Origin: an uncultured bacterium | GTDB taxonomy: Bacteria; Hydrothermota; Tepidihabitantia; Tepidihabitantales; Tepidihabitantaceae | DNA length: 64,000 nt | Assembly (NCBI GenBank): GCA_964626075.1 | Contig: CAZVDD010000011.1 | Span: forward strand, 12,566-76,565 | Reading direction: 5' to 3' | Part shown: in pieces, positions 3,545 to 53,455 of the stretch | Numbering within the stretch: the first letter of the stretch is position 1 | Layout of the letters: every line of letters starts with the position of its first letter | Position numbers and translations under genes: made by a program | Notes under the pieces: model-generated | Seen by the model: the letters and a program-made list of their open reading frames with translations, nothing else | What the model was told of the DNA's origin: nothing | Database searches by the model: none

Positions 3545-3547
3545 ATT

Positions 3548-5370: not shown

Positions 5371-5405
5371 AGGAACCTTCCTTTACTTTTACTTTTTATC
5401 GTTGC

Positions 5406-6266: not shown

Positions 6267-6292
6267 TTTATTGCCTCCTTTGACTTACTTAT

Positions 6293-7483: not shown

Positions 7484-7535
7484 GGTTGCCTCCTTTATAA
7501 GGTTTTTAGACATCGCTAAAAATGGTACGGGCAGA

Positions 7536-7575
7536 AAGTTAAATGGATATAACCCTTTGGTTAATTTTTGGTTAA
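7536..7575 (-). promoter_or_regulatory. Pho-box-like array of four 7-nt direct repeats at exact 11-bp periodicity, upstream of the porin-pst-phoU-phoBR operon
   Basis: The minus strand reads TTAACCAaaaaTTAACCAaaggGTTATATccatTTAACTTtctg. The repeats start at plus-strand 7569, 7558, 7547 and 7536. The array is about 50-90 nt upstream of the re-called porin start, which is the architecture of PhoB-bound promoters. Confidence 0.5.
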
Positions 7576-7634
7576 CTCGTTCGGTGGTATAATGGTAAAA
7601 GCGAATTCCGGCTAACTAACTAAAAATCAATTTA

Positions 7635-21628: not shown

Positions 21629-21637
21629 CGCACCTCC

Positions 21638-31310: not shown

Positions 31311-31989
31311 GCCGGTGTTGGTTGCCGATGGGCTCTGGCGCAGTTTTAAGACCGGCCCCGAAAAACTGGATGTACTGAAAGGGGTTCAATTTGAAGTTCG
31401 CCGTGGTGAACTGGTAGCAATTGTTGGGCCATCGGGCTCCGGGAAATCGACGCTTTTACACATCCTCGGCGGTTTGGACCGGCCCGATAAAGGCCGGGTT
31501 ATGCTTGATTCTATTGATATTTTTAAGTATCCTGAATCAAGGTTGCCGGAGTTGCGTAATCAGAAGGTTGGTTTTGTGTTTCAATTCCATCATCTTCTGG
31601 CAGAGTTTACCGTGCTGGAAAATGTTGCCGTGCCCTTGCTCATTGCCGGTGTTGAGCGACAAACGGCGTTGACAAAGGCGAAACAGGTGCTGGAAGAGGT
31701 CGGTTTTACGACGAGGTTGCAACATCGTCCGGGGGAACTTTCCGGAGGTGAACGGGCACTGGTAGCGGTGGCGCGGGCGCTGGCAAATACGCCGGTGGTG
31801 GTGTTTGCCGATGAACCGACCGGCAATCTGGACACGAGGTCAGCAAACGCTTTAATGGATTTGCTGGTGAAATTGAGCCAGGAAAAAGGCAGAACGATTT
31901 TAGTCGTCACCCATAACGAAGCACTGGCTGGCCGGGCGCAAAGGAAGTTAAGGTTGTGTGATGGGAGGCTGGAAGATGAAACTGTGTGA
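31303..31989 (+). CDS. lolD: Lipoprotein-releasing system ATP-binding protein LolD
   Basis: Walker A GPSGSGKST, signature LSGGERALVAVARAL, Walker B VFADEP and H-loop THN. It overlaps lolE by 8 nt. Confidence 0.85.
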   Translation: MNEPVLVADGLWRSFKTGPEKLDVLKGVQFEVRRGELVAIVGPSGSGKSTLLHILGGLDRPDKGRVMLDSIDIFKYPESRLPELRNQKVGFVFQFHHLLAEFTVLENVAVPLLIAGVERQTALTKAKQVLEEVGFTTRLQHRPGELSGGERALVAVARALANTPVVVFADEPTGNLDTRSANALMDLLVKLSQEKGRTILVVTHNEALAGRAQRKLRLCDGRLEDETV

Positions 31990-32473
31990 TATCTGCGGGA
32001 AAAAAGAGGCGACGCTGGTGGTGCGACAGCTGGATAAAGAGGGGAAGGCAACCGATTTGAATGTGTGCGCCGAATGTGCCAAGAAGCGAGGGTTTACCGG
32101 AGTTGAGGAATGCGAGCCCGACAGTGGTGCGGTCATTGCCGAATTGAAGTCCAGGATGGAGGAGAGCGATAGAAAAGTTATCTGCCCGCGCTGCGGGATG
32201 AGTTTTGCCGAATTTAAGAGGGCGGGAAGGCTCGGATGTGCCGATTGTTATCAGGCGTTTATTGAAAAGTTAAAACCGATAATCCGGCGTTTGCACGGCG
32301 CGGTTCAGCATATTGGCAAGACGGCAAACCAGGGGCGAAAGCGCGCCCAGGAGCGCCTTGAGATTCAGCGGCTGCGGGCGGAACTGGAGAAGGCGATAAA
32401 ACAAGAGGATTATGAAAAGGCGGCAGCGCTGCGCGACCGTCTGAAACGGAGAGAGGATGAAACTGACTCCTGA
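31976..32473 (+). CDS. mcsA: McsA-like activator of protein arginine kinase (zinc-ribbon plus UVR domain)
   Basis: Cys pairs CDICG...CAEC and CPRCG...CADC are followed by a UVR-like motif (YEKAAALRDRL). It lies immediately upstream of mcsB, overlapping it. The probable ATG is at about 31976. Confidence 0.65.
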   Translation: MKLCDICGKKEATLVVRQLDKEGKATDLNVCAECAKKRGFTGVEECEPDSGAVIAELKSRMEESDRKVICPRCGMSFAEFKRAGRLGCADCYQAFIEKLKPIIRRLHGAVQHIGKTANQGRKRAQERLEIQRLRAELEKAIKQEDYEKAAALRDRLKRREDETDS

Positions 32474-33500
32474 GAAGGTCGGTACCTGGTTGTCCAGTAG
32501 CGGGCCTGATTCTGATGTGGTCATTTCTAGCCGGGTGCGATTTGCGCGTAATCTAATTGATGTCCCATTTGTCGTCAGGATGAAACAGTTTGAGCAGGAG
32601 CTGGTTCTGGAGACGGTGCGCTGGGCACTTGCCGACATCGGGTTTCTAAAACAGGGGCGATTTTTTGAAGAAGGGATGCTGGCCGAACCAGATGGGCTCT
32701 ATTTTGTTGAACGGCATCTGGCGTCACTTGATTTGATAACCAGTAAAAACCGAAAAGGGCTTTTTGTTTCTGAGGATGAGACGGTGAGTCTAATGGTCAA
32801 CGAGGAAGACCATATCCGGTTCCAGGTTCTCTCATCAGGTTTTGACTTCGCTACGGCGTTTGGAAAAGCAGCCGAGCTTGATGAAAAACTTGAGGGGCAA
32901 CTGGCTTATGCCTTTTCACCCGAGTTCGGATTCCTTACCAGTTGTCCGACTAATGTCGGTACCGCACTTCGTGTTTCGGTATTTCTTCACTTGCCTGGGC
33001 TGGTGCTGACCAAAGAAATTGAGCGGGTTTTGCGTGGCGCCTATGCCCTTGGTTTGCTGGTGCGCGGCGTATACGGCGAAGGGACCGAGCCCCGGGCAAA
33101 CTTGTTTCAGATTTCCAATCGGCGGACCCTTGGACAGTCAGAGGCAGAGATTGTCGAGGTGGTCAGTAGCGTCTGCCGGCAGATAGTTGATTATGAACAC
33201 AAGGCACGACAGTTTCTGATGCACAATCTGCGGGTGGAGGTTGAAGACAAAGTATTTCGTTCCCTGGGGCTTTTGCGCGGCGCTCGTATTATCTCTACTG
33301 AAGAGGCGACCGATTTGCTGGCGATGGTGCGGTTCGGAGTGGCGCTGGGGATTATCAATGAACTGAGACTTGCCGAGGTAACTCAATTGTTAATCCTGAT
33401 TCGGCCGGCGAATCTTCAGGCTGTTTTAGGTGAAAAGTTGCACGGCGACGAACAGGACGAGCGTCGGGCAACATTTATCCGCGAGAAGTTGGTGCGGTGA
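32457..33500 (+). CDS. mcsB: Protein arginine kinase McsB (ATP:guanido phosphotransferase family)
   Basis: It has the phosphagen-kinase active-site motif CPTNVGTALR and a length of 347 aa. Confidence 0.85.
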   Translation: MKLTPEKVGTWLSSSGPDSDVVISSRVRFARNLIDVPFVVRMKQFEQELVLETVRWALADIGFLKQGRFFEEGMLAEPDGLYFVERHLASLDLITSKNRKGLFVSEDETVSLMVNEEDHIRFQVLSSGFDFATAFGKAAELDEKLEGQLAYAFSPEFGFLTSCPTNVGTALRVSVFLHLPGLVLTKEIERVLRGAYALGLLVRGVYGEGTEPRANLFQISNRRTLGQSEAEIVEVVSSVCRQIVDYEHKARQFLMHNLRVEVEDKVFRSLGLLRGARIISTEEATDLLAMVRFGVALGIINELRLAEVTQLLILIRPANLQAVLGEKLHGDEQDERRATFIREKLVR

Positions 33501-33503
33501 ATT

Positions 33504-34910
33504 ATGGGATTAACTGAGCAGGAAAAAAAGGAACGGTTGCGCCAGTTGCCTGCGGTGGAAAAGGTCCTCGGCGATGAGCGGTTGTCAGCGGTTATTACCG
33601 GGTTGCATCCGCGACTGGCAAAATGGATAATCCGGCGTTATCTGGAGGAGGTGCGGGCAGAAATTCTCAACGGAAAAGAGGCGCAGTTTGACATTGAAGA
33701 GTTACAACTCAGGTTGGCGGAGAACCATAAACCCAGTCTGGTCCGGGCAATAAATGGGTTGGGCGTGGTGTTACACACCGGGCTGGGCCGGGCACCTCTT
33801 CCCAAGGTGGCACAGCAGGCGTTGATTGATGTCAGTGAAAATTTTTGCACCCTGGAGATCAACCGAAGAGATGGAAGGCGAGGGAGTCGATATCGTCATA
33901 TTGAACCGCTGCTTTGTGAACTGACCGGAGCCGAGGCGGCAATGGTGGTGAACAACAACTGCGCGGCGACTTTGCTTATTCTCTCCACGATTGCCCAAAA
34001 CAAAGAGGTTGTTGTGTCTCGGGGGCAGTTGATTGAAATTGGCGGTTCGTTTCGAATTCCCGATGTGATGCGCCAGAGCGGGTGCCGAATGGTAGAGGTG
34101 GGGACAACCAATCGCACCCATCTGCGGGATTATGAAAATGCCATTACCCCGGAAACAGCAGCGATTTTACGGGTGCACACCTCTAATTACCGCATCGTTG
34201 GTTTTACCAAGGAGGTCGGGTTGGAGGAACTGGTAGCGCTGGGGCGGAAGCATCAAATCCCGGTAATAGACGATTTGGGTTCGGGCGCTTTGGTTGACCT
34301 TTCTAAATACGGTTTGCCCAAAGAACCGGTGGTTGGGGAGTCAATTGCGCTCGGCGCTGATGTTGTTTGTTTCTCAGGTGATAAACTTATTGGTGCCGGT
34401 CAAGCGGGCATCATTGTTGGTAAAAAGGTGTTGATTGAGCGGATGAAGAAAAATCCGCTTACCCGGGCACTGCGCTGTGACAAACTGACCTATGCGGTGC
34501 TGGAAAGAACTTTAGAACTTTTTCTTGATGAAGAACGGGTAATCCGGGAGCATGCTCTGTTTCAGGTCATTTTAAAGCCGCTTGCGCAGATGGAGGAGGA
34601 GGCGCGGGCGCTTTTAATGGTAATAAAGGATAAGTTAAAAGATAAAGCGGAGTTTGCCATTCGACCGACAAAGGCGGAAGTCGGAGGTGGCTCGCTGGCG
34701 ACAGAAACGCTTGATTCAATCGCCCTGACAGTTAAACCAAGAGGGATATCGGTGGCTGAACTGGCAAAGAGGCTGCGGTTTTACTCAATACCGGTTTTTG
34801 CCCGGGTGGCAAACGAGGAACTGTACCTTGACTTCCGCACCATCCGGAGCGACGAGGTCTCAATTGTTGGTGATGCCCTTATCTGGGCGCTGACGAAGGA
34901 AGGTGGCTGA
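33504..34910 (+). CDS. selA: L-seryl-tRNA(Sec) selenium transferase
   Basis: 468 aa. The PLP-lysine motif FSGDKLIGAGQAGII matches E. coli FSGDKLLGGPQAGII. Confidence 0.8.
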   Translation: MGLTEQEKKERLRQLPAVEKVLGDERLSAVITGLHPRLAKWIIRRYLEEVRAEILNGKEAQFDIEELQLRLAENHKPSLVRAINGLGVVLHTGLGRAPLPKVAQQALIDVSENFCTLEINRRDGRRGSRYRHIEPLLCELTGAEAAMVVNNNCAATLLILSTIAQNKEVVVSRGQLIEIGGSFRIPDVMRQSGCRMVEVGTTNRTHLRDYENAITPETAAILRVHTSNYRIVGFTKEVGLEELVALGRKHQIPVIDDLGSGALVDLSKYGLPKEPVVGESIALGADVVCFSGDKLIGAGQAGIIVGKKVLIERMKKNPLTRALRCDKLTYAVLERTLELFLDEERVIREHALFQVILKPLAQMEEEARALLMVIKDKLKDKAEFAIRPTKAEVGGGSLATETLDSIALTVKPRGISVAELAKRLRFYSIPVFARVANEELYLDFRTIRSDEVSIVGDALIWALTKEGG

Positions 34911-37693: not shown

Positions 37694-37722
37694 TTGACCC
37701 TGGAGAGGTGCTGGCTTATCAT
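37694..37722 (+). promoter_or_regulatory. Candidate sigma70 promoter (TTGACC, 17-nt spacer, TATCAT) with the -10 ending about 6 nt before the apbE ATG
   Basis: TTGACC lies at about 37694 and TATCAT at about 37717. The ATG at about 37729 has no Shine-Dalgarno sequence. Confidence 0.4.
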
Positions 37723-37728
37723 TTTGCG

Positions 37729-38709
37729 ATGAGACCGTTTTTACTCGGGATGTTAAGTTTAATGTTTTTTTGTTGCAATTCGCGCCCGGTTTATCAGGTT
37801 GATGAGACCGAAATTGGTTTTGGTAGTTATATCCGGATTTGTGCCCGAGGCAAGACAAAAGAAGGGACTTATAATGCGGTGCGTAAGGCTTTTGGGGAGA
37901 TGCATCGGCTGGACACGTTGTGGTCGAGATTTCTGGATAAGAGCGAAGTGGCACAGTTGAACCGGTTAAGGAAGATGCGGGTTTCGGAGGAGACTCGTAA
38001 TCTGATTGATAAAGGAAAAGCGATAGGCGAAGAGACGGCAGGTGCATTTGACATCACCGTGGAGCCGTTGATGCGATTATGGGGGTTTTATGACCGGGAT
38101 TACCGTGTGCCCGAAAGCGCCGAGGTTAAAGCAATGTTAAAGCGGGTTGATTATCGTCAGGTAGTGGTATCCGGCGACAGTATAATTCTTGGTGAAAACG
38201 TCAATGTTGACTTTGGTGGCATTGCGGTTGGTTGTGCGGTTGACCGGGCGGTAGCAATTTTGGAGTCGGCGGGTTTGAGCGAAGGACTGGTTGATGCAGG
38301 CGGTGACATTCGGGTGTTTGGGAATAAGGTGTGGCGGATTGGGGTGCAGAATCCGCGGGGGGGAGGGATTGTAAGGGTGCTGAAGTTGAAAAATCAAGCG
38401 GTTTCAACCTCGGGCGATTATGAGAATTTTTTTGAAGTTGGCGACCAGCGCTACTGCCACATAATTGACCCGAAAACTGGTTATCCGGTTTCACGCTGGG
38501 TTGCAGTAACGGTCCTAGCACCGAATGCTTGGGAAGCGGATGCCTTTTCCACGGCGCTGTTTAGTTTGGGCGACGCCGGTAGAGAGTTTGTAGGTAAAAA
38601 GCAGGCTAACATTCAAGACAGGGGCGAGGCCGCAAAATGGGGAGCACTTTTTTTTGAGGTACAGAGTGAATCCGTGGTTACAAAAAAGGCTGGGAGGGTA
38701 GATGAATAA
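37729..38709 (+). CDS. apbE: ApbE-family FAD:protein FMN transferase lipoprotein
   Basis: It has a lipoprotein signal (MRPFLLGMLSLMFFCCNS). Conserved ApbE regions include GGIAVGCAVDRA and TSGDYE. The track ORF begins earlier, at a GTG at 37708. Confidence 0.8.
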   Translation: MRPFLLGMLSLMFFCCNSRPVYQVDETEIGFGSYIRICARGKTKEGTYNAVRKAFGEMHRLDTLWSRFLDKSEVAQLNRLRKMRVSEETRNLIDKGKAIGEETAGAFDITVEPLMRLWGFYDRDYRVPESAEVKAMLKRVDYRQVVVSGDSIILGENVNVDFGGIAVGCAVDRAVAILESAGLSEGLVDAGGDIRVFGNKVWRIGVQNPRGGGIVRVLKLKNQAVSTSGDYENFFEVGDQRYCHIIDPKTGYPVSRWVAVTVLAPNAWEADAFSTALFSLGDAGREFVGKKQANIQDRGEAAKWGALFFEVQSESVVTKKAGRVDE

Positions 38710-39688
38710 AGAGGCGCGTTACTACACGGTTGAAGGTGAAAGGGTGCGTTGTCTTTTGTGTCCGAATCGGTGTCTTGTTGCATCAGGGAAGTTGGGACGG
38801 TGTCTTGGTAGAAAGAATATCAATGGTAAATTCTTTGCCATCAATTACGGTGAATTGGTATCGATGGCGGTTGACCCGATTGAAAAAAAGCCCCTTTACC
38901 ACTTTTATCCCGGAGCAGAGATTTTTTCCGTCGCAACCTATGGTTGCAATCTGCAGTGTCCGTTCTGCCAGAACTGGGAAATATCCCAGGAGGTAGCGCC
39001 CAGTCGATATGTTAATCCTGAAGAGTTGTTAAGAATGGTTGTGGAGTCAGGTTGCCGGTTCATCGCCTGGACCTATTCGGAACCGGTCATCTGGTTTGAG
39101 TATTTGCTGGATGCCGGGGAGTTGATGCATAAGGCGGGAATTAAGAATGTGTTGGTTACAAACGGGATGATTAATCCCGAACCCCTGGATGAACTTTTAG
39201 CGATAGTTGACGCGATGAATATTGATTTGAAATCTATCCGAAAGGAATTTTATCGGGATTATATCCATGGCGACCTTGAGACCGTTTTAAATACAATCAG
39301 AACTGCTCGAACGAGGTGTTTTGTGGAATTGACCACCCTTTTGATTTCGGGCAAGAACGATTCAGATGAGGAAATTTTTGAACTGACCGAATTTGTTGCC
39401 AGTCTGGGAAGGGAAACGGTTTTGCATTTTTCCCGTTTTTTTCCAAGATACCGGGCGGAGGAACCACCCACACCGGTAGAGACACTTATTCGAGCCGCCG
39501 AAATTGCCCGAAATAAACTGGACTATGTGTATTTAGGGAATATCGCATTGGATGAACGGTTCCGGGACACATTTTGTCCCGCGTGTGGTACGAAACTGGT
39601 TGACCGCAGTCAATACCGGGGCAGAGTTGTGGGAATAAAAGATGACAAATGTCAGCGCTGTGGAAGGAAGGTGGACATAGTTTTGTGA
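38702..39688 (+). CDS. Radical SAM enzyme of the AmmeMemoRadiSam (AmrS) / PFL-activase-like family
   Basis: It has an N-terminal Cys cluster (CLLCPNRC...C), the radical SAM motif CNLQCPFC and a C-terminal Cys pair (CPACG...CQRCG). It overlaps apbE by 8 nt. Confidence 0.7.
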   Translation: MNKEARYYTVEGERVRCLLCPNRCLVASGKLGRCLGRKNINGKFFAINYGELVSMAVDPIEKKPLYHFYPGAEIFSVATYGCNLQCPFCQNWEISQEVAPSRYVNPEELLRMVVESGCRFIAWTYSEPVIWFEYLLDAGELMHKAGIKNVLVTNGMINPEPLDELLAIVDAMNIDLKSIRKEFYRDYIHGDLETVLNTIRTARTRCFVELTTLLISGKNDSDEEIFELTEFVASLGRETVLHFSRFFPRYRAEEPPTPVETLIRAAEIARNKLDYVYLGNIALDERFRDTFCPACGTKLVDRSQYRGRVVGIKDDKCQRCGRKVDIVL

Positions 39689-40047
39689 AAATAGTTAAGG
39701 TGGGAGATTTAATTCTGATTGCATTTTTCCTTGTCTTGGGGGCGGGGAGTGGTGTTTTATTCTGGAACAGGGCGGAGACTGCTAATGTTTGTGTGATTAA
39801 GTCAATCGAAGGAGTACAAAGGATTGTCTTGCCAGCGGATACTGTTGTCACCCTTATAGGTCCGGTAGGGAAAACGGTCGTTGAGGTTAAAGGTAAACGG
39901 GTTCGGGTGCGGGAGTCAGACTGTCTAAATAAAATCTGTGTTCGCACCGGCTGGATTAGCATTTCCGGACAGATGAGCGTGTGTGCACCGAATCGGGTAA
40001 TAGTTCAAGTCACGCAGGGCGATGGGGTTGATGGTATTACAAGATAG
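39684..40047 (+). CDS. NusG domain II-like (DUF1312-type) small membrane-anchored protein
   Basis: About 120 aa from a GTG that overlaps the radical-SAM stop as GTGA. It has an N-terminal TM helix and a beta-rich domain resembling NusG_II proteins found with ApbE/Gx transporters. This was not verified. Confidence 0.45.
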
Positions 40048-40534
40048 AATAAGGCGGATAGCGATTTATGGGGCACTCGCGGTAGGACTGTACACCGTGG
40101 AGAACTTGCTACCAACGCCGCTGCCGTGGTTGCGTATTGGGGTGGCAAATGTTGCGGTGGTGTTGGCGCTAACAGATCTGGGATTAACCGCGGCGGCTTT
40201 AGTTTTTCTGGCAAAGTTAATTCTGGGTTCAATCATCACCGGCCGGTTTCTGACCCCCTTCTTCTTTTTCGGTGCGGTTGGGGGTGTTATTGCACTCGGG
40301 GCAATGTTACTTGTCTGGGTTTTGGGTCGGAAGGTGGTAAGTGTTGTAGGGATAAGTGTCGCGGGTGGTGTTTTTCATAATATCGGTCAACTTCTGGTTG
40401 CCCGCTTTGCACTGATACAGAGTCCGGCGCTCTGGCGGCTTTTACCGGTGTTTATCATCATAGGGGTTGGAACCGGTACCGGTATCGGCATTGTTGCCCG
40501 CTTGATTCAGTTAAGGATAAAGGAATATGCTTGA
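40022..40534 (+). CDS. Gx transporter family protein (heptaprenyl-diphosphate-synthase component I-like membrane protein)
   Basis: 170 aa with 4-5 TM helices. It has a conserved Glu/Asn in ENLLPTPLPWLRIGVANV near the N-terminus, as in PF07456-type proteins. Confidence 0.55.
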   Translation: MGLMVLQDRIRRIAIYGALAVGLYTVENLLPTPLPWLRIGVANVAVVLALTDLGLTAAALVFLAKLILGSIITGRFLTPFFFFGAVGGVIALGAMLLVWVLGRKVVSVVGISVAGGVFHNIGQLLVARFALIQSPALWRLLPVFIIIGVGTGTGIGIVARLIQLRIKEYA

Positions 40535-40592
40535 TTAACGATAATGGGATGTTATAGTTTTCAATCGGGAGTGAATCAGAAGGAGTTAAATT

Positions 40593-40874
40593 ATGAAGAG
40601 TAGAGGAGTGCGTTCGGGTGGCAGGTCAATTGGGCTGTTAATTCTGGCAATTGTCGTGGCGGGAATTGCCGGCAGTATACTTTCTTATTTTCTATCCGGA
40701 CTGTTTCCGCCGGGTCCGGTCCGTGATTTCTTTTTCAAATCAATGCAGATTGGAGTGCCGACATTCACATTAAATCTTGGGTTTGCAACTTTAACTTTTG
40801 GACTTTCATTTGCGGTAACTACGTTTGCGGTGCTCTTGTTGATTCTGGCGGTCTATCTCTGGTATCGGTTTTAG
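40593..40874 (+). CDS. Small two-TM membrane protein (DUF4321-like), the last gene of the cluster
   Basis: 93 aa and hydrophobic. It has an RBS GGAG upstream and is followed by a strong terminator. Confidence 0.4.
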   Translation: MKSRGVRSGGRSIGLLILAIVVAGIAGSILSYFLSGLFPPGPVRDFFFKSMQIGVPTFTLNLGFATLTFGLSFAVTTFAVLLLILAVYLWYRF

Positions 40875-40906
40875 TCATTAAACATTAAATTTGGCTGATA
40901 AAAAAA

Positions 40907-40933
40907 TCGGGGGCGGTTTTACCGCCCCCGATT
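40907..40933. terminator. Intrinsic terminator hairpin between convergent genes, with the U-tract on the minus-strand side
   Basis: ATCGGGGGCGG-TTTTA-CCGCCCCCGAT forms a perfect 11-bp GC-rich stem. The plus strand has AAAAAAA 5' of it, giving a U-run for the minus-strand transcript of the 1335-aa gene. It may also stop the plus-strand cluster. Confidence 0.7.
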
Positions 40934-40950
40934 CAGTGTTAACCAGTTTT

Positions 40951-43900
40951 TCAACGCTGGACGATAAGTTTCCGAGAGTATACCTTATTGCCGGTTTCCA
41001 ATTTCAGGAAATAGACACCAGGTGGGGCATAGGTTCCTTTGTCAGTTATCAGATTCCAGGTGAATTTGTGCCTACCGGCGGGCAGGGTGCTGTTGAGAAT
41101 GTTTTTGGTTTGGGCGCCGGTCGCATCGTAGATGGTAAGCCGGATGTGCTGGGATGTTGGTAGGTTGCACAGGATAGTGAGACTGTTTTTGCCGATTGGG
41201 TTGGGGAAAAGAGCCAATTCAGGTGCCGATGGCAATGGCACATTTTCTGCCATTACTCCCTGACGCTCAGGAGTGGTGAAGAACAGTGGCAGATTGCCTA
41301 AGGAGTCAGTTTCAGGGCGGTACTCCCAGAATTCATACACATAGGAGCCTTTGAGGCAGAAGATGGCACTGTTAGTGGCGGCAAGGGCGGCACCACGTTT
41401 GACTTTGGTGCGTTTGCCGGTTAGCGCAATTGGAATGTCAGAGCGCCGGACCCAGGAGTCGCGTACTCCGACTGGATAAGACCAGAACTCCTGGGTGTTA
41501 CCACCTTTGAGTACGTAGAGGTTGGAGTTTAGATAAGTTATCGCACCCCCTGCTTTAACCCTGCGGTTTCGATTACCAATTAGACTGACTTGGTCAAGGG
41601 GTGTAAGATACCAGGAGTCGAACGCGGGATAGTATTTCCAGACTTCGGTGGTATTGTTACCTTTGAGGAGGTAGATGATGCTATCTCCGTCATACACCAT
41701 ATCGGTGCCGTAACGGCAGGAACGACGACGGATTGGGATAAAAGGTACATCCGGACAGCGCGCCCAGGTGTCCGCACCGATATCATAGCGGACAAAGGTA
41801 AGTGAGTTGTTGCCGGTTGCGCAGTAAACCGCACCTTCAGGACCATGGGTCGGGACATAGGCGAGAGCGGCGCCGATTTTGGGCCAACGGAAGGTAAATC
41901 CGCGCACGCTGACCGACCGCCTGATTTGCCAGGTTCGGCTGGCGATGTCAAACGAGTAGAAATCAGGCACACCGCCCCCTTTGATTGCCCATATGGTGCC
42001 TTGCGTACCGGTGAACTGGTCATAAGTAAGGTCGCAGCCTTCTTTCGCCTTTTTGCCCGACGGGTCCAGTGGCATACTTGGTAGTGATTCCCAGGTGCCG
42101 GTAGCGATGTCATAAGAGTAGAATTCGTTTGTGTTCCCGCCTTTGAGCGCATAAAGTTTATTTGTTGCCGGGGCATAGACGAGGGAGGCGTTTTTCACTT
42201 TGCGGCGGGCAGGACCAATCGGAATGTCTTCACGCTGCACCCAGGAAGAAGAGACAAAGACTTTGCTGAAAATGTCGTTAGCCGGGTTGATATCTCCAGC
42301 CATTGCGGTTGAACATACCGCCGAGAATGTGCCTCGACCATACCAGGTGCTTGGCATCGTTACGGTTGTCTCGGCACCGGGTGCCAGTCCAGTTACAAGG
42401 ACAGAGTCGAAATAATCGCCCGGCATTATTCTCAGATAAGCCCAGATAGAATCACCCACGGTGCCGTAGTTCTGGATTTTGACCTGAGGGAAAAGCGTCT
42501 CTGGGAATGTGTAAGTAGCGGGCGTCACTATATCAAGTGCCGCGGCGTCCCGGAACTCATGGTACAATTTTATCGCCCGACCTGATGTTAATCGGTTCTG
42601 GGGGTCGTTGGTTGCTGCGGAGAGAGGGGACAGGGAGTAAAGGTAGTTGACACCGCCATTACCTTCTTTGTTTTCCATGCCAATTGATGTGTTTTTGCCG
42701 TAGTCGTAGTTCAAGTCACCGGTGGTTACATCCTGATACTGAAAGACCACGGTGCCGTTTTCATTGAGGATGGCTTCAAAGGTAACGAGGTCAGTGGTGT
42801 CGGTGTACTTCAGGTTGACATTCTGCCAGATGACGACGAACTGTCTATTAGGTGACTGGCCGATTGTTTTGTAGTAAACCTTTCCGGCAGAACGGAGTTC
42901 ATGGTCAGCCCACCAGGGTGCAATCAGGGCGTTTGGTAGGTTGGAGTTCGGGATGCGTTGCGGGTTGGGCGCAAATTCGTGAGGGTCGTAACCGAGCGCA
43001 AGCCAGCCGTTGGTGCATACATAACAGTTATTGTAGGTTGTATCGGAGTAGGGGAAGTCAAAACCGATGGGTACGAAAATGCGGTATTCGTCCTCCCGCT
43101 GGATGGCGATGTTCGCACCGCTGGTGTCAATCCAGGAGTAAACCGGACCGCCGGTAGTATCGGAGTCAATCCAGGCGTAACCTGTGGCGACCCTGCCCGT
43201 ATAAGCCCCCTTGACAAGGTCAAACCCGAACCGTTTCTCGTCGTTCTGCGGTACCTCATCACCAACCGGCGCACCGCTCCAGTCAAAATAGACGATGACC
43301 GAACAGGGCTGGGAGGCAATTGTTGGGACCCAGCCGTTGAAGTCGACCGCAATTTTGTCACCCGGCCCAAGCGCGGCAATGGTGGCAGAGCCCGTGAAGA
43401 GCGGATTGTGGGTTATATCGATAACCGAACAGCGTACCGGGATGTTGTATAAACTTTCCATGCCAAAGTTTTCAATATGGGCACGAATCGGGCAGGGCGC
43501 ATCAAAAGGACGCTGGATAAATTCATAGAGCGGTTGTTCAATAAATGTCACCCGGGCGTCGTGATTTGAAGGGGTAAGCGGGTTATGATTGACAATGACC
43601 CGGAGCATCAGGTCACCAGGTGGGGTTTCTGGGAGCATTGTTCCGTCCCGGTAGTAAGTCCAATAGTTGTTGGGGTTATTGAGGTTGCCATCGTTGGCGA
43701 GTTGCGGGCATTCAGGCGGTTCTCCAACCTGGAGGTAGAAAACATAGAAGTCGCCGACAACCGGTATCTGTTCGCCGGTGTCAGCAACGAAGACCGAGTT
43801 CCAGCCCGCGCCAGGTGCTGCGTAAAGAACCGGGGTCTTAAATAGGAATGGTCCGGGGATTCCGGTGCCAAGGTCAGGAGCGATGGCAAGTTGGTATCGC

Positions 43901-44958
43901 GAATGTGCCGGGTTAACTGGCGAGTTAAGATAAACCTTGAGCGACTCTATAAAAACCGGGTTGGAGATAGAAAATTTGGCGCCCCAGCCGTAATGGCCTA
44001 CGGGCCAGGTGCGATAACCCGCAGGAGTGCCGTTGTCATTGGCAATCTCTTCAAGGTTTGAGACCACAAAGTTGCGGGTCAGGGTGTCGTTAGCGCGGTT
44101 GTAGTCGGAGTCCGCCGCGCACCAGAACTTAATTGAGTAGTGACCGACGGTCAACGGGAAGGAGGTAGAGTCAAAAAACGACACCTTCTCGCCGGTGAGA
44201 GCAAGGAGGGTATCAATTGTGTCCTGCCACAGGTAGAGAGAGTTGCCAAGGCTGTCAAAAAGTTCGCAATAGACCGGAATAGCGTACTGGTCCTGTAAAC
44301 CGATGTTGCGAAAGCGGGCTTGAGGATAAAGGTTACCCGGAAGTTCAAAGTAGTCGGGTTCTAAAATACGCTGGCACCGGATGTCGTAAGTAAGGATTGA
44401 GTCACCGGTAACGACGACATCGTCAAACATCCACCAGTTGATGTTGAACAAATCGCCCTGAAAAACCCAGGCGATGACAACACTATCGCGCCTTGTTGCC
44501 GAAGGCAGTTCAAAAGATTCGAGAACACCGGGCCCGACATTTTGTTCGTAATAGTCCCTAAGAACATAAGGAAATGTTTGACCACCATCAATTGAGTAAC
44601 GGATCTGAGCGGTATAGGAGTTAGAAATTCGGTGGGAGAAGTAGGTGCTGCAGGTGAGTACAATATTACGATAGGTGGCGCAGTTGATGACCGGAGAGAT
44701 GAGCATATCCGGGGTTTGGTTCTGGTTCATTTGCCAGAAGATTGCCGGATATGGTGAAGGATGGTCGGTCCAGGGTGCGGCGTTTGCCGGTTCCCGGTGC
44801 CAATCGGCATAATTCTGGGGGTTTAAACTGTCGTAAATAACCTTCCAGCCCGGGGGCGGGTTTTGGGGTGTCCAGGGAGCATCAAAGTTTTCGACAAGAA
44901 GGGTGTCGGCAAACCCCAGTGTCAAGAGCACAATTAAACCGACAACCAGATTTCTCAT
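40951..44958 (-). CDS. Giant secreted protein (about 1335 aa) with Kelch-type beta-propeller repeats and a T9SS C-terminal sorting domain
   Basis: It has a signal peptide. Kelch-like repeats are repeated (LYALKGGNTNEFYSYDIATGTWESLPSMP, IWAIKGGGVPDFYSFDIASRTWQ, LYVLKGGNTQEFWSYP, IFCLKGSYVYEFWEYRPETDS). The C-terminus ...RLTIYDATGAQTKNILNSTLPAGRHKFTWN...GVYFLKLETGNKVYSRKLIVQR matches a T9SS CTD. An AAGGAGG RBS favours the second ATG. Confidence 0.8.
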   Translation of the reverse strand: MRNLVVGLIVLLTLGFADTLLVENFDAPWTPQNPPPGWKVIYDSLNPQNYADWHREPANAAPWTDHPSPYPAIFWQMNQNQTPDMLISPVINCATYRNIVLTCSTYFSHRISNSYTAQIRYSIDGGQTFPYVLRDYYEQNVGPGVLESFELPSATRRDSVVIAWVFQGDLFNINWWMFDDVVVTGDSILTYDIRCQRILEPDYFELPGNLYPQARFRNIGLQDQYAIPVYCELFDSLGNSLYLWQDTIDTLLALTGEKVSFFDSTSFPLTVGHYSIKFWCAADSDYNRANDTLTRNFVVSNLEEIANDNGTPAGYRTWPVGHYGWGAKFSISNPVFIESLKVYLNSPVNPAHSRYQLAIAPDLGTGIPGPFLFKTPVLYAAPGAGWNSVFVADTGEQIPVVGDFYVFYLQVGEPPECPQLANDGNLNNPNNYWTYYRDGTMLPETPPGDLMLRVIVNHNPLTPSNHDARVTFIEQPLYEFIQRPFDAPCPIRAHIENFGMESLYNIPVRCSVIDITHNPLFTGSATIAALGPGDKIAVDFNGWVPTIASQPCSVIVYFDWSGAPVGDEVPQNDEKRFGFDLVKGAYTGRVATGYAWIDSDTTGGPVYSWIDTSGANIAIQREDEYRIFVPIGFDFPYSDTTYNNCYVCTNGWLALGYDPHEFAPNPQRIPNSNLPNALIAPWWADHELRSAGKVYYKTIGQSPNRQFVVIWQNVNLKYTDTTDLVTFEAILNENGTVVFQYQDVTTGDLNYDYGKNTSIGMENKEGNGGVNYLYSLSPLSAATNDPQNRLTSGRAIKLYHEFRDAAALDIVTPATYTFPETLFPQVKIQNYGTVGDSIWAYLRIMPGDYFDSVLVTGLAPGAETTVTMPSTWYGRGTFSAVCSTAMAGDINPANDIFSKVFVSSSWVQREDIPIGPARRKVKNASLVYAPATNKLYALKGGNTNEFYSYDIATGTWESLPSMPLDPSGKKAKEGCDLTYDQFTGTQGTIWAIKGGGVPDFYSFDIASRTWQIRRSVSVRGFTFRWPKIGAALAYVPTHGPEGAVYCATGNNSLTFVRYDIGADTWARCPDVPFIPIRRRSCRYGTDMVYDGDSIIYLLKGNNTTEVWKYYPAFDSWYLTPLDQVSLIGNRNRRVKAGGAITYLNSNLYVLKGGNTQEFWSYPVGVRDSWVRRSDIPIALTGKRTKVKRGAALAATNSAIFCLKGSYVYEFWEYRPETDSLGNLPLFFTTPERQGVMAENVPLPSAPELALFPNPIGKNSLTILCNLPTSQHIRLTIYDATGAQTKNILNSTLPAGRHKFTWNLITDKGTYAPPGVYFLKLETGNKVYSRKLIVQR

Positions 44959-45066
44959 CATTGCCTCCTTTTAATTGCCTGCGTTTGGTCTCATTAATTA
45001 AAAATGTAACCCGGGGTTGAGTATTTAGATTAGTCTCAGCCCCAGCCGCTATCAGCAGCCAGTTTG

Positions 45067-49070: not shown

Positions 49071-50162
49071 TTACTTTTCCACCACCTTCTTGTAAGCCTG
49101 ATAGAACTGTTTTAGTACCCGGTCGGCTTCGGTTTTTGTCATCGGTGCCATATGGCCGATGCGCACCACCTTACCACGCAATTCTGCCTGGCCATTAGCG
49201 AGAAGGATGCGATTCTGGGTCTTGCAGATGTCAACGATTTTCGTGCCGTCCACGCCATCAGGTAAGCGGATGACAGTGAGGGCGTTTGCCGGGTTCTTGG
49301 GGAAAATGGTGAACCCCATCATTACGACCTTTTCCCGGACATAACGGGCAAGGGTTGCCTTTTCCTGCCAGATTTTCTTGACACCGCGCCGATGGCATTT
49401 CTTGAGGGCGAGGTCAAGGGCATAGTAGATTGAGATTGCTGGGGTCCAGGGTGTTTGCCCCTTTTCGGCAAACTGGCGGTATTTGCGCAGGTCAAAGTAG
49501 TAACGGGTGTTTTTGCACTTCTCAACCTGCTCCCAGGCACGGGGGCTGAGGGCGATGAAAGACAGTCCGGGCGGCACCGCTAATCCCTTCTGCGAACCGG
49601 CAATGACAACATCGAGATGCCAGGCGTCCATTTGCAGTTCATCAACACCCATACCGGCAACGGCATCAACGATTAGAATTCGGTTAAGGCGGTAGCAGAT
49701 TTCGCCGAACGCTTTGATGTCGTTGAGGGCACCGGTGGATGTTTCGGTGAGCGTGGTAAAAACGCAGCGGGCAGCATCGTTTGATTTCAGTTTACGCTCC
49801 AGTTCTTCGGGAGGGATTGATTCACCGTAGGGGCGATTGAGTTCGTCAACATAACCACCGAACCTGATAGCCAGTTCCCGCCAGCGCTCACCAAACTTAC
49901 CACAAACGGCAACGATAACCCGGTCCTGAGGGTTGACAAGATTGGCGACAGCCGCTTCCATCGCACCGGTCCCCGAAGCGGTGAGGACATAGACCGGCTG
50001 GCTGGTAAAAAAAAGTTTTGCCAGTCCCTTCATCACTGAATCCTGAAGAGAGGCAAAACTTGCCTCGCGGTGGTAAACGAGGTCGTTGTTCATGGCTTTG
50101 AGGTAGTCAGCTGGAACCGCGACCGGTCCCGGTGTGTAGAGTTTGTATTTTGGTTTAATCAT
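49071..50162 (-). CDS. Class V aminotransferase (serine-pyruvate/alanine-glyoxylate aminotransferase-like)
   Basis: It belongs to PLP fold-type I class V (LTETSTGALNDI..., ...DAVAGMG, the SQKGL lysine region). The likely ATG (MIKPKYKLYTPGP) overlaps the thiC stop as ATGA. The track ORF extends 15 codons further. Confidence 0.75.
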   Translation of the reverse strand: MIKPKYKLYTPGPVAVPADYLKAMNNDLVYHREASFASLQDSVMKGLAKLFFTSQPVYVLTASGTGAMEAAVANLVNPQDRVIVAVCGKFGERWRELAIRFGGYVDELNRPYGESIPPEELERKLKSNDAARCVFTTLTETSTGALNDIKAFGEICYRLNRILIVDAVAGMGVDELQMDAWHLDVVIAGSQKGLAVPPGLSFIALSPRAWEQVEKCKNTRYYFDLRKYRQFAEKGQTPWTPAISIYYALDLALKKCHRRGVKKIWQEKATLARYVREKVVMMGFTIFPKNPANALTVIRLPDGVDGTKIVDICKTQNRILLANGQAELRGKVVRIGHMAPMTKTEADRVLKQFYQAYKKVVEK

Positions 50163-51400
50163 AGAATAGTCTCCTTTGTTTTCTTTACCGCACAAAATTC
50201 GCCGCACATTGTGCAGGCGCCTTCGGTGCGCGAAGGCTGAATGGCAAAAACCGCCTTTGCCCGTTCCGGGTCAAGACTGTGGGCAATCATTTTGCCCCAC
50301 TGGAGGCGGGCACGAAAGCGGGAAAGTTTGTTGTCCCAGTCAATCGCGCCCGGGTGATGCCGGGCGATATCAGCCGCATGGGCGGCAATGCGTGATGCGA
50401 TAACCCCTTCCCGGACATCCTCGACATCGGGCAGTCCGAGGTGCTCTGATGGGGTGACATAACAGAGAAAATCAGCACCGTAATAGGCGGCAAGGGCGCC
50501 ACCGATCGCCGCCGTAATGTGGTCGTAGCCGCAGGCGATGTCGGTTACCAGAGGACCCAGGACATAAAATGGCGCGCCGTCGCATACCGTCTTTTCAAGT
50601 AAAATGTTCGCCTCAATCTGGTCAATCGGAATGTGACCCGGTCCTTCAACCATTGCCTGAACACCAGCCACCCGGGCACGCTGCACCAGTTCACCAATGG
50701 TTAAAAGTTCAGAAATCTGAGCCTCATCGGTGGCATCGGCAATGGCACCGGGCCGCAGGCCGTCGCCTAAAGACAGGGTGGCATGGTACTCTTTTGCCAT
50801 TGCGAGCAGTTCGTCGTAGTGCTCATAAAGGGGGTTTTCCCGATTGTTGAACTTCATCCATTCCATCATCATCACGCCACCCCGGCTGACAACACCACCC
50901 AAACGGCGGCGTACGGTGCTGAAACTTTTTCGGGTGACACCACAGTGTACGGTGATGAAGTCAACGCCATCGGCGAGGTGTTTTTCAATGCCCTGGAAAA
51001 TGTCTTTAACGGTAACTTCGGGGAAAGAGCGCCGGTGCTGACGCGCGGTTATTGCCACCTGGTAGATGGGCACAGTGCCCACCGGAATTGGGGCGTTGCG
51101 AATAATCTCCCGGCGAATTTCGTCCACATCACCGCCCACCGAAAGGTCCATTATCGTATCGGCACCGGCAGCAATTGCAACGCGCAGTTTCTCCAGTTCT
51201 GTTTCCAGGTCAACCCGGTCCGGCGATGTGCCGATGTTGGCGTTGACCTTGACCCGGGTTTTCTCGCCAATGGCGAGCGGCTTGATTTTTCGCTTCCGAT
51301 TCTGCAGAAGAACAACCCGGCCTGATTCGACCAAGCGGCGTAGTTCATTGGGCTTCAGCCCTTCTTCTCGGGCGAGCGCCGCCAATGTTGATTTATTCAT
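50159..51400 (-). CDS. thiC: Phosphomethylpyrimidine synthase ThiC
   Basis: It has the GTVPIYQ motif and ThiC core regions. The C-terminal cluster is CTMCGEFCAV. Its 413 aa are typical of short anaerobe-type ThiC. Confidence 0.85.
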   Translation of the reverse strand: MNKSTLAALAREEGLKPNELRRLVESGRVVLLQNRKRKIKPLAIGEKTRVKVNANIGTSPDRVDLETELEKLRVAIAAGADTIMDLSVGGDVDEIRREIIRNAPIPVGTVPIYQVAITARQHRRSFPEVTVKDIFQGIEKHLADGVDFITVHCGVTRKSFSTVRRRLGGVVSRGGVMMMEWMKFNNRENPLYEHYDELLAMAKEYHATLSLGDGLRPGAIADATDEAQISELLTIGELVQRARVAGVQAMVEGPGHIPIDQIEANILLEKTVCDGAPFYVLGPLVTDIACGYDHITAAIGGALAAYYGADFLCYVTPSEHLGLPDVEDVREGVIASRIAAHAADIARHHPGAIDWDNKLSRFRARLQWGKMIAHSLDPERAKAVFAIQPSRTEGACTMCGEFCAVKKTKETIL

Positions 51401-52193
51401 TGTTGTTCACCTCCTCGAGCGCAACCGTTTCCTCGGTGCCTTCTTGATAACGGACTGTGAGACGATGGGTTAGGGGGTCAACTCCAGTAACCGTTCCCAC
51501 GCCCCGGGCGGTTTTTATCCGGTCGCCGATACGCGGACAAAGGAGTAGCCAGCGGTAAGTTTCTTCTTCATAGGCAAGGCAGCAGAGCAGTTTGCCACAG
51601 AGCCCGGAGATTTTGGTCGGTTCGACAAACAGGTTCTGCTGGCGTGCCATCCGCAGGGTAATCGGTTTCAACTCTTTGAGAAATTGCTGGCAGCACAGTA
51701 TGCGACCGCAGGGTCCAATGCCACCGAGAAGGCGCGCATGGTCGCGGACGCCAATCTGTTTAATTGCCACTCGTACATTGAGCGCCGAGGCGAGCGCTTT
51801 GTGGAACATCCGGAAGTTCAGTTTCTGATCGGATACGAAGTAAAAACAGACCTTTTTCTTATCCAGCCGCCAGTGGGCGCCAACCACTTGCATCTCCAGC
51901 CGATACTCATCACGCAACCGGCGGAAAATTTCCAGTGTTTGTTGGGTTTTGCGGTCCAGTTCCTGGCGGGTGCGGAGGTCTTCTTCCGTGGCCCGGCGCA
52001 AAACGACCGCTTCGGCGGGGCGAACACCGTTGGTGTCAATCATTACCAGTTTACCTAAATCCTCGCCCTCTTCATCGCCCACGACAACGAAATCACCCAA
52101 AGAGAAGTCAAGACCGGCGGGCAGAACACACCAGTCACTCTTGAAGGTGTTAAATTCGACAAGGGCGCAGCGGTCTTTTTCGGCCATTGGCAT
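51393..52193 (-). CDS. PSP1 C-terminal domain protein (YaaT/RicT-like)
   Basis: 266 aa. It has the Cys-rich PSP1 motifs GPCGRILCCQQF and GLCGKLLCCLAYEEE. Confidence 0.8.
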   Translation of the reverse strand: MPMAEKDRCALVEFNTFKSDWCVLPAGLDFSLGDFVVVGDEEGEDLGKLVMIDTNGVRPAEAVVLRRATEEDLRTRQELDRKTQQTLEIFRRLRDEYRLEMQVVGAHWRLDKKKVCFYFVSDQKLNFRMFHKALASALNVRVAIKQIGVRDHARLLGGIGPCGRILCCQQFLKELKPITLRMARQQNLFVEPTKISGLCGKLLCCLAYEEETYRWLLLCPRIGDRIKTARGVGTVTGVDPLTHRLTVRYQEGTEETVALEEVNNNE

Positions 52194-52198
52194 ACCCG

Positions 52199-53455
52199 TT
52201 AGCGAAACTGGTCAATTTCTTCCGGGGTCAACAGGTTTTCCAGCCCGGTGGCGGGTTCGTCAGGACTGTTGGTCCAGGCGAGGCGGTAATTACCGTCACC
52301 CCGGGTGTCGATGAAGACGAAGGTGTAGCCTAACTGGTAATAGAACCAGTATTCGCGGGGTTTTATCTCCATCTCCATCGTTTTGCGTTCCACCGCATCC
52401 GGTTCGCCGTAGCGGACATACACCCGACCCCGGTCGGTGTTTATGCCGGAAGTCCGGCCGCTGCGGTAGCGTCCCTCGGCGGTTTCCATGCGGCGCACAA
52501 ACTCAGCGAGATTGTGTTTTGACCAGAACCAGGCGAGGTACGACATTTTACCGGTGTCGGAAAGCGAATTGTAGTAAGCCAGTTCTTTGGGCGTGGCGAT
52601 GAACTCCAGTTTCCGGTAGTACTTTTCCTCCTGGGGCGAGGGTTGAAAGGTATAGGGACGGAGTATTGGTGCCGGACTACCGATGGTAAACTGCTGATGG
52701 GCGTTGACCGTTTGGTCGTTGCTCAGGTCGGTGACATTCACGACAAAGAGATACGAGCCCTCGGCAAGGTTTTCAATGCCCAGTTCCAGCGTGACGGTGG
52801 CTTTTGCGCCCGACTTTTTCCGGACAACCGGCCGGGAACGGACAACGGTGTCTTTTGTTGCGAGGTCAAGCAGGAGGTAGGAGAACTGGTAATTACCGGA
52901 GTCGGGCAAAAGCCCGTACACTTCCCAATAGGCGAACAGGTTTTGGGCGCGGGGGTCAAACCGGCGTCCAGGATTGGGCACAACGACAAGTCTACCGGTG
53001 GCGGTGTCCCGCAGGAGGGCAAGCGCCAGCTGGATAGAACTCAGGGCGAGGTGGGAGGTGAAATCCGGGATATTGACCGTGTCGATAATTGTGCCCTGGT
53101 TCAAAGAGTCGGCGATTGTTACCCGGACCTGATAACTGCCCGGCGGAGCAACGATGCTGAACTGGTCAACAAACGTCCGCTGGTGCTGTACCGCCTCCTG
53201 AAAACTTTTGACGCGGGCGCGTTTGTTTATCGTGCCGGATTCGCTAAACTGGACATCAATCCCATTCATCTCCGTAGCGACCGTAAACAGGGCAAAAATG
53301 CCCTCGGTACCGGGTTGAAATGTTAGCTGGTCGTAGGGCACGCCGTAGTAAAATTCGACCCGACCAGAGTCGTTCTCAGTTAAGAAAACCGCCCAATCAA
53401 GGTCAAACTGTAGTGTTCCGAAAACGGTTAAACTGAGCAATAGTAAACTTAACAT
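52199..53455 (-). CDS. GWxTD domain protein
   Basis: It has a signal peptide. The C-terminal region has YLAWFW...GINTDRGRVYVRYGEPD, the GW/xTD/G-PD pattern of the GWxTD family. Confidence 0.6.
   Translation of the reverse strand: MLSLLLLSLTVFGTLQFDLDWAVFLTENDSGRVEFYYGVPYDQLTFQPGTEGIFALFTVATEMNGIDVQFSESGTINKRARVKSFQEAVQHQRTFVDQFSIVAPPGSYQVRVTIADSLNQGTIIDTVNIPDFTSHLALSSIQLALALLRDTATGRLVVVPNPGRRFDPRAQNLFAYWEVYGLLPDSGNYQFSYLLLDLATKDTVVRSRPVVRKKSGAKATVTLELGIENLAEGSYLFVVNVTDLSNDQTVNAHQQFTIGSPAPILRPYTFQPSPQEEKYYRKLEFIATPKELAYYNSLSDTGKMSYLAWFWSKHNLAEFVRRMETAEGRYRSGRTSGINTDRGRVYVRYGEPDAVERKTMEMEIKPREYWFYYQLGYTFVFIDTRGDGNYRLAWTNSPDEPATGLENLLTPEEIDQFR

Follow-up and report, generated by a model that had tools for sequence, protein, structure and literature searches.

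Five co-directional genes on the plus strand of a 64-kb stretch of DNA from an uncultured bacterium (contig CAZVDD010000011.1; the whole stretch is referred to here as the window) occupy positions 37729-40874 and probably form a composite WOR-3 operon, in which AmrS, a radical S-adenosylmethionine (SAM) enzyme of the AmmeMemoRadiSam type, is embedded in a flavin-trafficking module and works in the same pathway. Searches with Pfam and NCBIfam profiles revealed that each of the five open reading frames (ORFs) matches one family, and the assignments proposed by an earlier reading of the letters alone (the sequence-only reading) are thereby confirmed: an ApbE-family FAD:protein FMN transferase, AmrS, an EetA-type protein with a NusG_II domain, an EetB-type membrane protein (the "Gx transporter") and a small DUF4321 membrane protein. 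As AmrS is found in flavin company across six phyla and in four gene orders, a common pathway, and not an accident of position, is the reading that we prefer. The flavin cassette itself is ordinary, and the recurring tie of AmrS to it is the part without a description in the searchable literature.

The radical SAM gene (38702..39688, plus strand) encodes a cytoplasmic protein with the PF04055 domain, which scores 306.1 bits against TIGR04337 (AmmeMemoSam_rS; cutoff 220, model positions 4-329 of 349) and so belongs to the AmrS family, as had been supposed. Its score against TIGR02493, the equivalog model of pyruvate formate-lyase activating enzyme (PFL-AE), is 55 bits for a cutoff of 231.75. 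The CX3CX2C motif of AmrS lies at C82/C86/C89, and the additional Cys clusters that the sequence-only reading had noticed at both ends, N-terminal C17/C20/C24/C34 and C-terminal C292/C295/C317/C320, are indeed present; all eleven of these residues are invariant in 14 homologues. An AlphaFold2 model of AmrS (pLDDT 89, pTM 0.90) has PFL-AE (3C8F) as its nearest fold in the PDB (Foldseek E 3e-15, TM 0.78 on the target, 20% identity), and judging from this model AmrS would resemble a protein-directed activase in its fold without being a member of that family. The compact partial-barrel radical SAM core is shared with PFL-AE (3C8F/3CB8), whereas the N-terminal four-Cys β domain and the C-terminal CxxC...CxxC ribbon are features of AmrS that PFL-AE does not have, and, unlike the glycyl-radical activases, the window AmrS has no glycyl-radical enzyme in its vicinity. 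To our knowledge, no structure of AmrS has been solved. In a distance-based neighbour-joining tree of 79 AmrS proteins and the window protein, the flavin-linked members are interleaved with the AMMECR1-linked ones and the branching follows taxonomy, which identifies them as orthologous AmrS instead of a specialised paralogue; the window protein is accordingly a true AmrS orthologue.

The surroundings of AmrS were surveyed by scanning one genome per GTDB species with the AmrS profile. The 80 best loci, 79 of which have an intact radical SAM gene, were kept with flanks of ±8 kb (they are cited by L numbers where they have to be told apart), and their ORFs were searched with the window proteins and with hidden Markov models (HMMs) built from the matches. 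AmrS directly adjoins ApbE, EetA, EetB or DUF4321 in 11 of the 79 loci, and the link is seen in six named phyla, namely WOR-3, Atribacterota, Thermotogota, Cloacimonadota, Spirochaetota and Deferribacterota. AmrS stands beside ApbE in L007, L008, L010, L015, L018, L046 and L053, beside EetA in L008, L027, L052, L053, L057 and L062, beside EetB in L008, L052, L053 and L062, and beside DUF4321 in L007 and L010. Four gene orders can be distinguished: ApbE-AmrS(-EetA-EetB)(-DUF4321) in WOR-3 and its allies (L007, L008, L010, L015); (AMMECR1-)AmrS-ApbE(-EetA-EetB) in Caldatribacterium (L018), Thermotogaceae (L046) and Deferribacterales (L053); EetA-EetB-AmrS in two Spirochaetales (L052, L062); and AmrS-EetA in two Cloacimonadota (L027, L057). 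All 19 HMM matches to the four families in approximately 1.05 Mb of flanking DNA belong to the AmrS gene run.

Further WOR-3 relatives (57-70% identity), found by exact-protein look-up and additional to the 79-locus sample, carry ApbE-AmrS-DUF4321 (L089, L090, L091) or AmrS-DUF4321 (L092). Therefore, the conserved core in WOR-3 is ApbE-AmrS-DUF4321, and the EetA-EetB pair of the window, which L008 also carries, looks like an insertion. Stop/start overlaps occur in the window as well as in L008, L010, L015, L018, L027, L046, L053, L057, L089 and L090. The conservation in relatives on which the sequence-only reading had made its proposal depend is thus found both within WOR-3 and in other phyla. 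In the published eetB neighbourhood table (PMC9973259), a Thermotogota locus contains AMMECR1, a radical SAM protein (331 aa) and ApbE, and an Acidaminococcus locus contains LigB+AMMECR1 and a radical SAM protein; radical SAM is never mentioned in the text of that paper. Our literature search found no paper joining AMMECR1 with ApbE, or flavinylation or ApbE with radical SAM, and found "AmmeMemoRadiSam" mentioned in 6 papers, always in passing. The earlier impression that such an embedding had not been described therefore holds for the searchable literature, with the reservation that Burroughs et al. (2019) may already list the ApbE/PF07456 context. Apparent AmrS fusion proteins at four loci (L063, L066, L079, L029) were upstream read-through of high-GC sequence or short extensions, with no domain fusion.

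The AmmeMemoRadiSam system is composed of AMMECR1 (TIGR04335), Memo (TIGR04336) and AmrS (TIGR04337). The first two are conserved proteins found from archaea to humans and have links to human disease, and we know of no established chemistry for the three-gene system in any organism. The window AmrS passes the third of these models, shares all of the invariant Cys residues and nests among AmrS proteins adjoining AMMECR1 or Memo+AMMECR1 fusions. Unlike in that system, the neighbours of the window AmrS are flavin-trafficking genes, and neither the cluster nor the rest of the 64 kb contains AMMECR1 or Memo: a six-frame search with HMMs built from 25 AMMECR1 and 16 Memo/LigB neighbours gave no match even at E<=10, in agreement with the absence reported from the letters alone, and none was found in the flanks of L089 and L090. 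Within the window, the three genes that define AmmeMemoRadiSam are thus not all present. Across the sample, AMMECR1 lies within ~2.5 kb of AmrS in 27 loci, 17 of which also have a LigB/Memo domain, separate or fused (neighbour identities were checked by Pfam), and the order AMMECR1-AmrS-ApbE occurs in L018 and L046.

The combination of ApbE, NusG_II and Gx proteins is the published ApbE-EetA-EetB flavin-trafficking module, and the statement of the sequence-only reading that this association is functionally uncharacterised is out of date (PMC9973259). In Listeria, the ApbE-type transferase FmnB depends on FAD exported by the ECF-S-like subunit EetB (PF07456) and the ECF-T paralogue FmnA, and flavinylation of PplA requires EetB (PMC9973259; Rivera-Lugo et al., mBio 2023). 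The suggestion that the Gx transporter exports FAD for ApbE was right in this respect and had already been published for Listeria EetB. The genome survey of that study found eetB in 4,214 genomes, with eetA in 3,328 and with apbE in 2,169, and its Data Set S1 gives PF07009 the label EetA (PMC9973259). The EetA-type gene of the window (39685..40047, plus strand) encodes an N-terminal membrane anchor followed by a NusG_II domain (PF07009, 79.3 bits, E 2.9e-22), which is predicted to face outward. Homologue sequences share the motif DCxxxxCVxxGW..C.PN with three conserved Cys residues, and alignment revealed that these are not kept in the Listeria-type structures; the solved NusG_II relatives 4OBI, 2KPP/3LD7 and 4ESN have no assigned function. 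A resemblance of CVxxGW to the glycyl-radical-type motif RVxG[YFW] was noted by eye and rejected, as the spacing differs and the domain is outward-facing.

The EetB-type gene (40022..40534, plus strand) encodes a membrane protein matching PF07456 (Hpre_diP_synt_I; 128.2 bits, E 3.3e-37, residues 18-160 of the 170-aa form), and an alternative 145-aa gene call on some contigs would drop its first helix. The EetA and EetB genes match both family models and overlap each other, and no NCBIfam model matches EetA, EetB or DUF4321. PF07456 owes its name "heptaprenyl diphosphate synthase component I" to an old misannotation, and by analogy with Listeria EetB the window protein is most readily regarded as an ECF-S-like FAD-export subunit. 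The ABC systems of the window are of the MacB/FtsX type, two ABC_membrane exporters and two Pst-type importers, with no ECF-T/A gene among them. The Listeria monocytogenes extracellular electron transfer (EET) locus (FmnB/ApbE, EetA, EetB, FmnA) and the Firmicute apbE-eetA-eetB clusters bring together the same PF02424, PF07009 and PF07456 families (PMC9973259), and FAD export followed by extracytosolic FMN transfer would be expected of the window module on the strength of this likeness. Across its parts covered by Pfam annotation (2.8-11.6 and ~14.5-63 kb), the window, unlike the Listeria locus, lacks an FmnA-type ECF-T, EcfA/A', Ndh2, PplA and DmkA/B, and with Ndh2, PplA, Dmk and FmnA absent the cluster is not a Listeria-type EET locus. 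It also differs from the Listeria and Firmicute clusters in that neither Rnf nor another flavinylated target adjoins it, that apbE and eetA are separated by a radical SAM gene, that a DUF4321 gene stands at the end, and that it belongs to WOR-3 and not to Firmicutes.

The first gene of the cluster (37729..38709, plus strand) encodes an ApbE-family FAD:protein FMN transferase (PF02424, 265.8 bits, E 5.6e-79). Its N-terminus reads MRPFLLGMLSLMFFC followed directly by C at the lipobox, and it carries the motif SGDYE..YCHIIDPKTGYP. ATG 37729 is the likely start, backed by WOR-3 homologues that show MRP/MRR, a hydrophobic stretch and a Cys in the same register, and relatives end the lipobox position with ...ALAC, ...LAGC, ...FTTC, ...LINC and ...LLFC. 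The window ApbE would therefore be an extracytoplasmic, predicted lipoprotein, the lipobox and membrane topology having been judged by eye and the topology by the positive-inside rule. The PDB matches of this protein are 1VRM, 5MGY, 7ESA, 2O18, 6NXI and 4IFU (E 4e-44 to 5e-27), and the solved relatives include experimentally named FAD:protein FMN transferases. The best of them is Thermotoga maritima TM1553 (PDB 1VRM; E 3.6e-44, 154 bits). With 128.6 versus 498, the window ApbE falls short of the E. coli-type equivalog NF007774, which shows only that it is a different orthologue from the E. coli-type one. TM1553 is also the best solved relative of all four AmrS-linked ApbE proteins tested, with 280 bits for Thermotogaceae (L046, 8954-9775), 139 for Caldatribacterium and 100 for Deferribacterales. 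The Thermotogaceae ApbE, from an AMMECR1-AmrS-ApbE locus, is by sequence clearly assignable as an orthologue of TM1553, so that a crystal structure, 1VRM, is already available for an orthologue of an AmrS-linked ApbE. For the Deferribacterales protein, the margin of TM1553 over other ApbE proteins is nil (100 versus 99 bits), so that an AmrS-linked ApbE subfamily of its own is no more than hinted at. The flavinylation motif [ST]GA[ST] occurs in five window ORFs, none of which is credible as an exported target: the nucleotide loop of a ComF-type phosphoribosyltransferase (PRTase), a deoxyhypusine-synthase-like protein, a cytoplasmic 359-aa protein and two short ORFs.

If AmrS and the flavin module share a pathway, as we favour, EetB would move FAD across the cytoplasmic membrane in the manner of its Listeria counterpart, and the lipoprotein ApbE would use the exported FAD to attach FMN covalently to Thr/Ser of envelope redox proteins, as ApbE-type transferases do. 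The targets of ApbE would be encoded elsewhere in the genome, Rnf/Nqr-type proteins being the usual ones, and outward-facing EetA would be a conserved accessory of EetB without an assigned activity, and not a demonstrated target. AmrS would perform a cytoplasmic radical step on a cofactor or on a pre-export protein, which would then follow the EetB/ApbE route. A same-route reading is supported by the separate pairing of AmrS with ApbE, with EetA and with EetA-EetB, accompanied by translational coupling, and by the two loci that join AmrS to both AMMECR1 and ApbE. Gene identities, coupling and the conserved neighbourhood are results of the present analysis, and FAD export (EetB) and FMN transfer (ApbE) were demonstrated earlier for homologues; any role of AmrS or DUF4321, transcription of the genes as one unit and the identity of the flavinylated protein are inferred. 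A more specific proposal is that AmrS, or the AmmeMemoRadiSam system, represents the cytoplasmic step that tailors the flavin (or a companion cofactor or protein) exported by EetB and installed by ApbE, with ApbE-AmrS-DUF4321 as the reduced WOR-3 version without AMMECR1/Memo; in so definite a form the idea is unlikely, and any particular chemistry ascribed to AmrS would be a doubtful choice.

Several points weigh against a shared pathway. The sample consists of the 80 AmrS closest to the WOR-3 protein and is hence biased, and the link is present in only 11 of 79 sampled loci, while 27 have AMMECR1/Memo and many have neither. A Listeria ΔeetA mutant shows no EET phenotype (PMC9973259). AmrS is located in the cytoplasm and ApbE and the EetA domain outside it, so that a direct pairing of enzyme and substrate is not apparent. 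A flavinylation target, rnf/nqr and an ECF-T/A partner for EetB were not found in the 64-kb window. We know of no experiment on any AmrS. Since some loci run into maf/mreC/PBP2 and clostridial DUF4321 genes lie near maf/mreB, the pattern is perhaps partly old synteny.

Retained synteny is accordingly the alternative that survives best, and we regard it as rather unlikely. AmrS, ApbE, EetA, EetB and DUF4321 would then be unrelated housekeeping or envelope genes of an old neighbourhood that also held a polyprenyl synthase, maf and mreBCD-PBP2, kept side by side through inheritance or for the sake of co-expression, and AmrS would be unconnected to flavin. The Deferribacterales locus L053 (7026-11329) has the order polyprenyl synthase, AmrS, ApbE, EetA, EetB, Maf, and the Caldatribacterium locus L018 (5279-12939) has FeFe hydrogenase, a 135-aa ORF, AMMECR1, AmrS, ApbE, MreC, a 159-aa ORF and PBP2, as would be expected of such a remnant. 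AmrS is preceded by a polyprenyl synthetase in 7 loci, AmrS of Firmicutes is located in the truA-rplM-rpsI-amidase...glmM region, clostridial rows read EetB-DUF4321-Maf and RnfB-DUF4321-MreB-MreC (Data Set S1, PMC9973259), and housekeeping genes surround the cluster in the window. However, the gene orders number four and the phyla six, yet adjacency is immediate, often with stop/start overlaps, and the separate pairings of AmrS (with ApbE alone, with EetA alone and with EetA-EetB) are not what pure descent from a single ancestral order would lead one to expect.

Two further explanations can each be called improbable. One is redox supply, in which ApbE flavinylates Rnf/Nqr-type complexes that make reduced ferredoxin or flavodoxin and AmrS is co-regulated as a user of low-potential electrons. 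The thiamine phenotype of Salmonella apbE, which acts through the radical SAM enzyme ThiC, provides a parallel. The radical SAM cluster motif and PFL-AE-like fold of AmrS, the FeFe hydrogenase upstream of the cluster in L018, and the colocalisation of eetB most often with Rnf in Clostridia (PMC9973259) are compatible with it, whereas rnf, nqr, ferredoxin and flavodoxin genes stand beside AmrS in 0 of 79 loci and are likewise absent from the window. This explanation would, moreover, fit every radical SAM enzyme and leaves a link specific to AmrS unexplained. The other explanation assigns AmrS (with AMMECR1/Memo where present) to modification of a polyprenyl or quinone-type lipid that serves the envelope electron-transfer systems carrying the flavinylated proteins; EetA/EetB/ApbE would then adjoin it because the two cofactors belong to one pathway. 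Contexts of Memo/AMMECR1/radical SAM are reportedly tied to "nucleotide base and aliphatic isoprenoid modification" in the abstract of Burroughs et al. (J Biol Chem 2019). A polyprenyl synthetase (PF00348) directly precedes AmrS in the 7 loci mentioned above, including L053, where it stands before AmrS-ApbE-EetA-EetB, and the Listeria EET locus unites DmkA/DmkB with EetA/EetB; against this, no polyprenyl synthase or quinone gene was found in the window, and the "heptaprenyl" name of PF07456, being a misannotation, is no evidence.

It is very improbable that the substrate is the cluster's own NusG_II protein (or DUF4321), flavinylated by ApbE as the sequence-only reading had proposed or modified by the radical SAM enzyme: the overlapping AmrS-EetA ORFs of Cloacimonadota without ApbE or EetB, the three conserved Cys residues of EetA and the action of PFL-AE-like enzymes on proteins would fit, but a motif scan found no [ST]GA[ST] in EetA, as had been stated earlier, nor in DUF4321, AmrS acts in the cytoplasm and the predicted orientation of the EetA domain is outward, Listeria-type EetA has not kept the Cys residues, most WOR-3 versions keep ApbE-AmrS without EetA, and the ΔeetA result cited above offers it no support.

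The tie of AmrS to ApbE/EetA/EetB in six named phyla, at two loci together with AMMECR1, provides a testable handle on a long-unassigned conserved system, and if AmrS does tailor an exported flavin, the AMMECR1/Memo/AmrS system would gain a biochemical context. The pairing is a lead to the role of AmrS and not a proof of it; were the link only synteny, an ordinary flavinylation cassette would lie beside an ordinary housekeeping gene. In either case, the Firmicute FAD-export module is extended to WOR-3 and other little-studied anaerobes, and DUF4321 is flagged as a possible further component.

The DUF4321 gene (40593..40874, plus strand) encodes a small membrane protein of 93 aa (PF14209, 35.9 bits versus a cutoff of 27, E 6.7e-9). 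It directly follows AmrS in L007, L010, L089, L090, L091 and L092 and is the most constant AmrS neighbour within WOR-3, whereas jackhmmer searches of the 80 loci found none adjoining AmrS outside the WOR-3-like clade. In Clostridia, DUF4321 is located between EetB or RnfB and maf/mreB (Data Set S1, PMC9973259), and the family is not mentioned in any paper found in the literature search. DUF4321 may be an unrecognised component of the flavin module or of a cell-shape cluster. A family of small ORFs among the loci (c36) is acylphosphatase-like.

Regarding gene spacing, the tight coupling claimed by the sequence-only reading is borne out by overlaps read directly from the sequence. The ApbE stop and the AmrS start overlap by 8 nt, and the AmrS stop overlaps the GTG start of the NusG_II gene at 39685 by 4 nt (GTGA), with the Shine-Dalgarno (SD) sequence GGAAGGAAGG ~10 nt upstream of this GTG. 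The NusG_II and PF07456 genes overlap by 17-26 nt, depending on the choice of ATG, and a spacer of 58 nt with a GAAGGAG SD and a promoter-like site separates the PF07456 gene from DUF4321. This possible internal promoter (40531..40558, plus strand) reads TTGATT-16-TATAGT with a TG and agrees with the consensus, by match only, at 9 of 12 positions. Expression of the five genes from a single transcript would be in keeping with this layout.

The shared promoter and strong terminator of the sequence-only reading were upheld in part. A promoter-like site, TTGACC-17-TATCAT, does lie at 37694..37722 on the plus strand and agrees with the consensus at 10 of 12 positions; a scan of the region gave 9 such sites, and because shuffled sequence also gives them (4.7±2.2), the evidence for this promoter is weak. 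The -10-like box TATCAT ends 6 nt ahead of the ApbE ATG (37717-37731) and no SD is present in the sequence ahead of the ATG at 37729; translation of ApbE, which comes first in the cluster, may therefore start on a leaderless mRNA. The intergenic region upstream of ApbE is only 87 nt, and no Rfam family, whether an FMN riboswitch or another RNA element, reaches its gathering score anywhere in the 64-kb window. At the other end, a strong GC-rich hairpin (40904..40934; 14 bp, A7 on one side and T7 on the other) is indeed present where the DUF4321 gene and the gene of a 1336-aa type IX secretion system (T9SS) cargo protein converge, with ~-32 kcal/mol on either strand and z about -5.7 to -5.9. The scan reported it as a minus-strand terminator. 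As the T-run is on the minus strand, the hairpin best fits the terminator of the convergent 1336-aa gene, which it would serve, and it is at most bidirectional.

Close homologues of the window AmrS are named candidate division WOR-3, and the identical AmrS protein, in the same gene order, is found on 10 metagenome contigs of up to 289 kb. The gene content of the window was taken from precomputed Pfam lists for ~14.5-63 kb and from our own scan of 2.8-11.6 kb. The genes around the cluster are of housekeeping character: AspRS, a MacB-type ABC system, McsA/McsB, SelA, Lgt, a ComF-type PRTase and an M23 peptidase. The T9SS cargo protein, RF1, PrmC and NAD kinase lie 3' of it, and ThiC, GlyS, pyrimidine genes and two Pst-type phosphate importers are located farther out. 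The cargo gene (40951-44961, minus strand), convergent with the cluster, encodes a 1336-aa protein with Por_Secre_tail and FlgD_ig signals, which mark it as T9SS cargo, and faint NIDO/Kelch matches; a homologue stands right after DUF4321 in the WOR-3 relatives L089 and L091. At 31958-34910 (plus strand), SelA (selenocysteine synthase) comes after a McsA-like UVR protein and the protein arginine kinase McsB, which implies that this WOR-3 organism uses selenoproteins and a quality control based on arginine phosphorylation. At 20462-22783 (minus strand), a deoxyhypusine-synthase-like gene (PF01916) adjoins an Orn/Arg/DAP decarboxylase, a pair that suggests homospermidine-type polyamine synthesis. 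ThiC, a PSP1-domain gene after it and then two GWxTD-domain proteins side by side occupy 50159-54625 (minus strand); that ThiC lies ~10 kb away from the cluster with ApbE is probably a coincidence. At 2786-11630 (minus strand), two Pst-type phosphate ABC importer operons stand in tandem, each with a PBP_like_2 binding protein and two BPD_transp_1 permeases; the first has one ABC_tran ATPase gene and the second two, and a 406-aa ORF without a Pfam match (6293-7513) separates them. GC skew is positive in every 2-kb bin whatever the gene orientation, and its cumulative value rises monotonically to 5.2; therefore, the whole window lies on one replichore.

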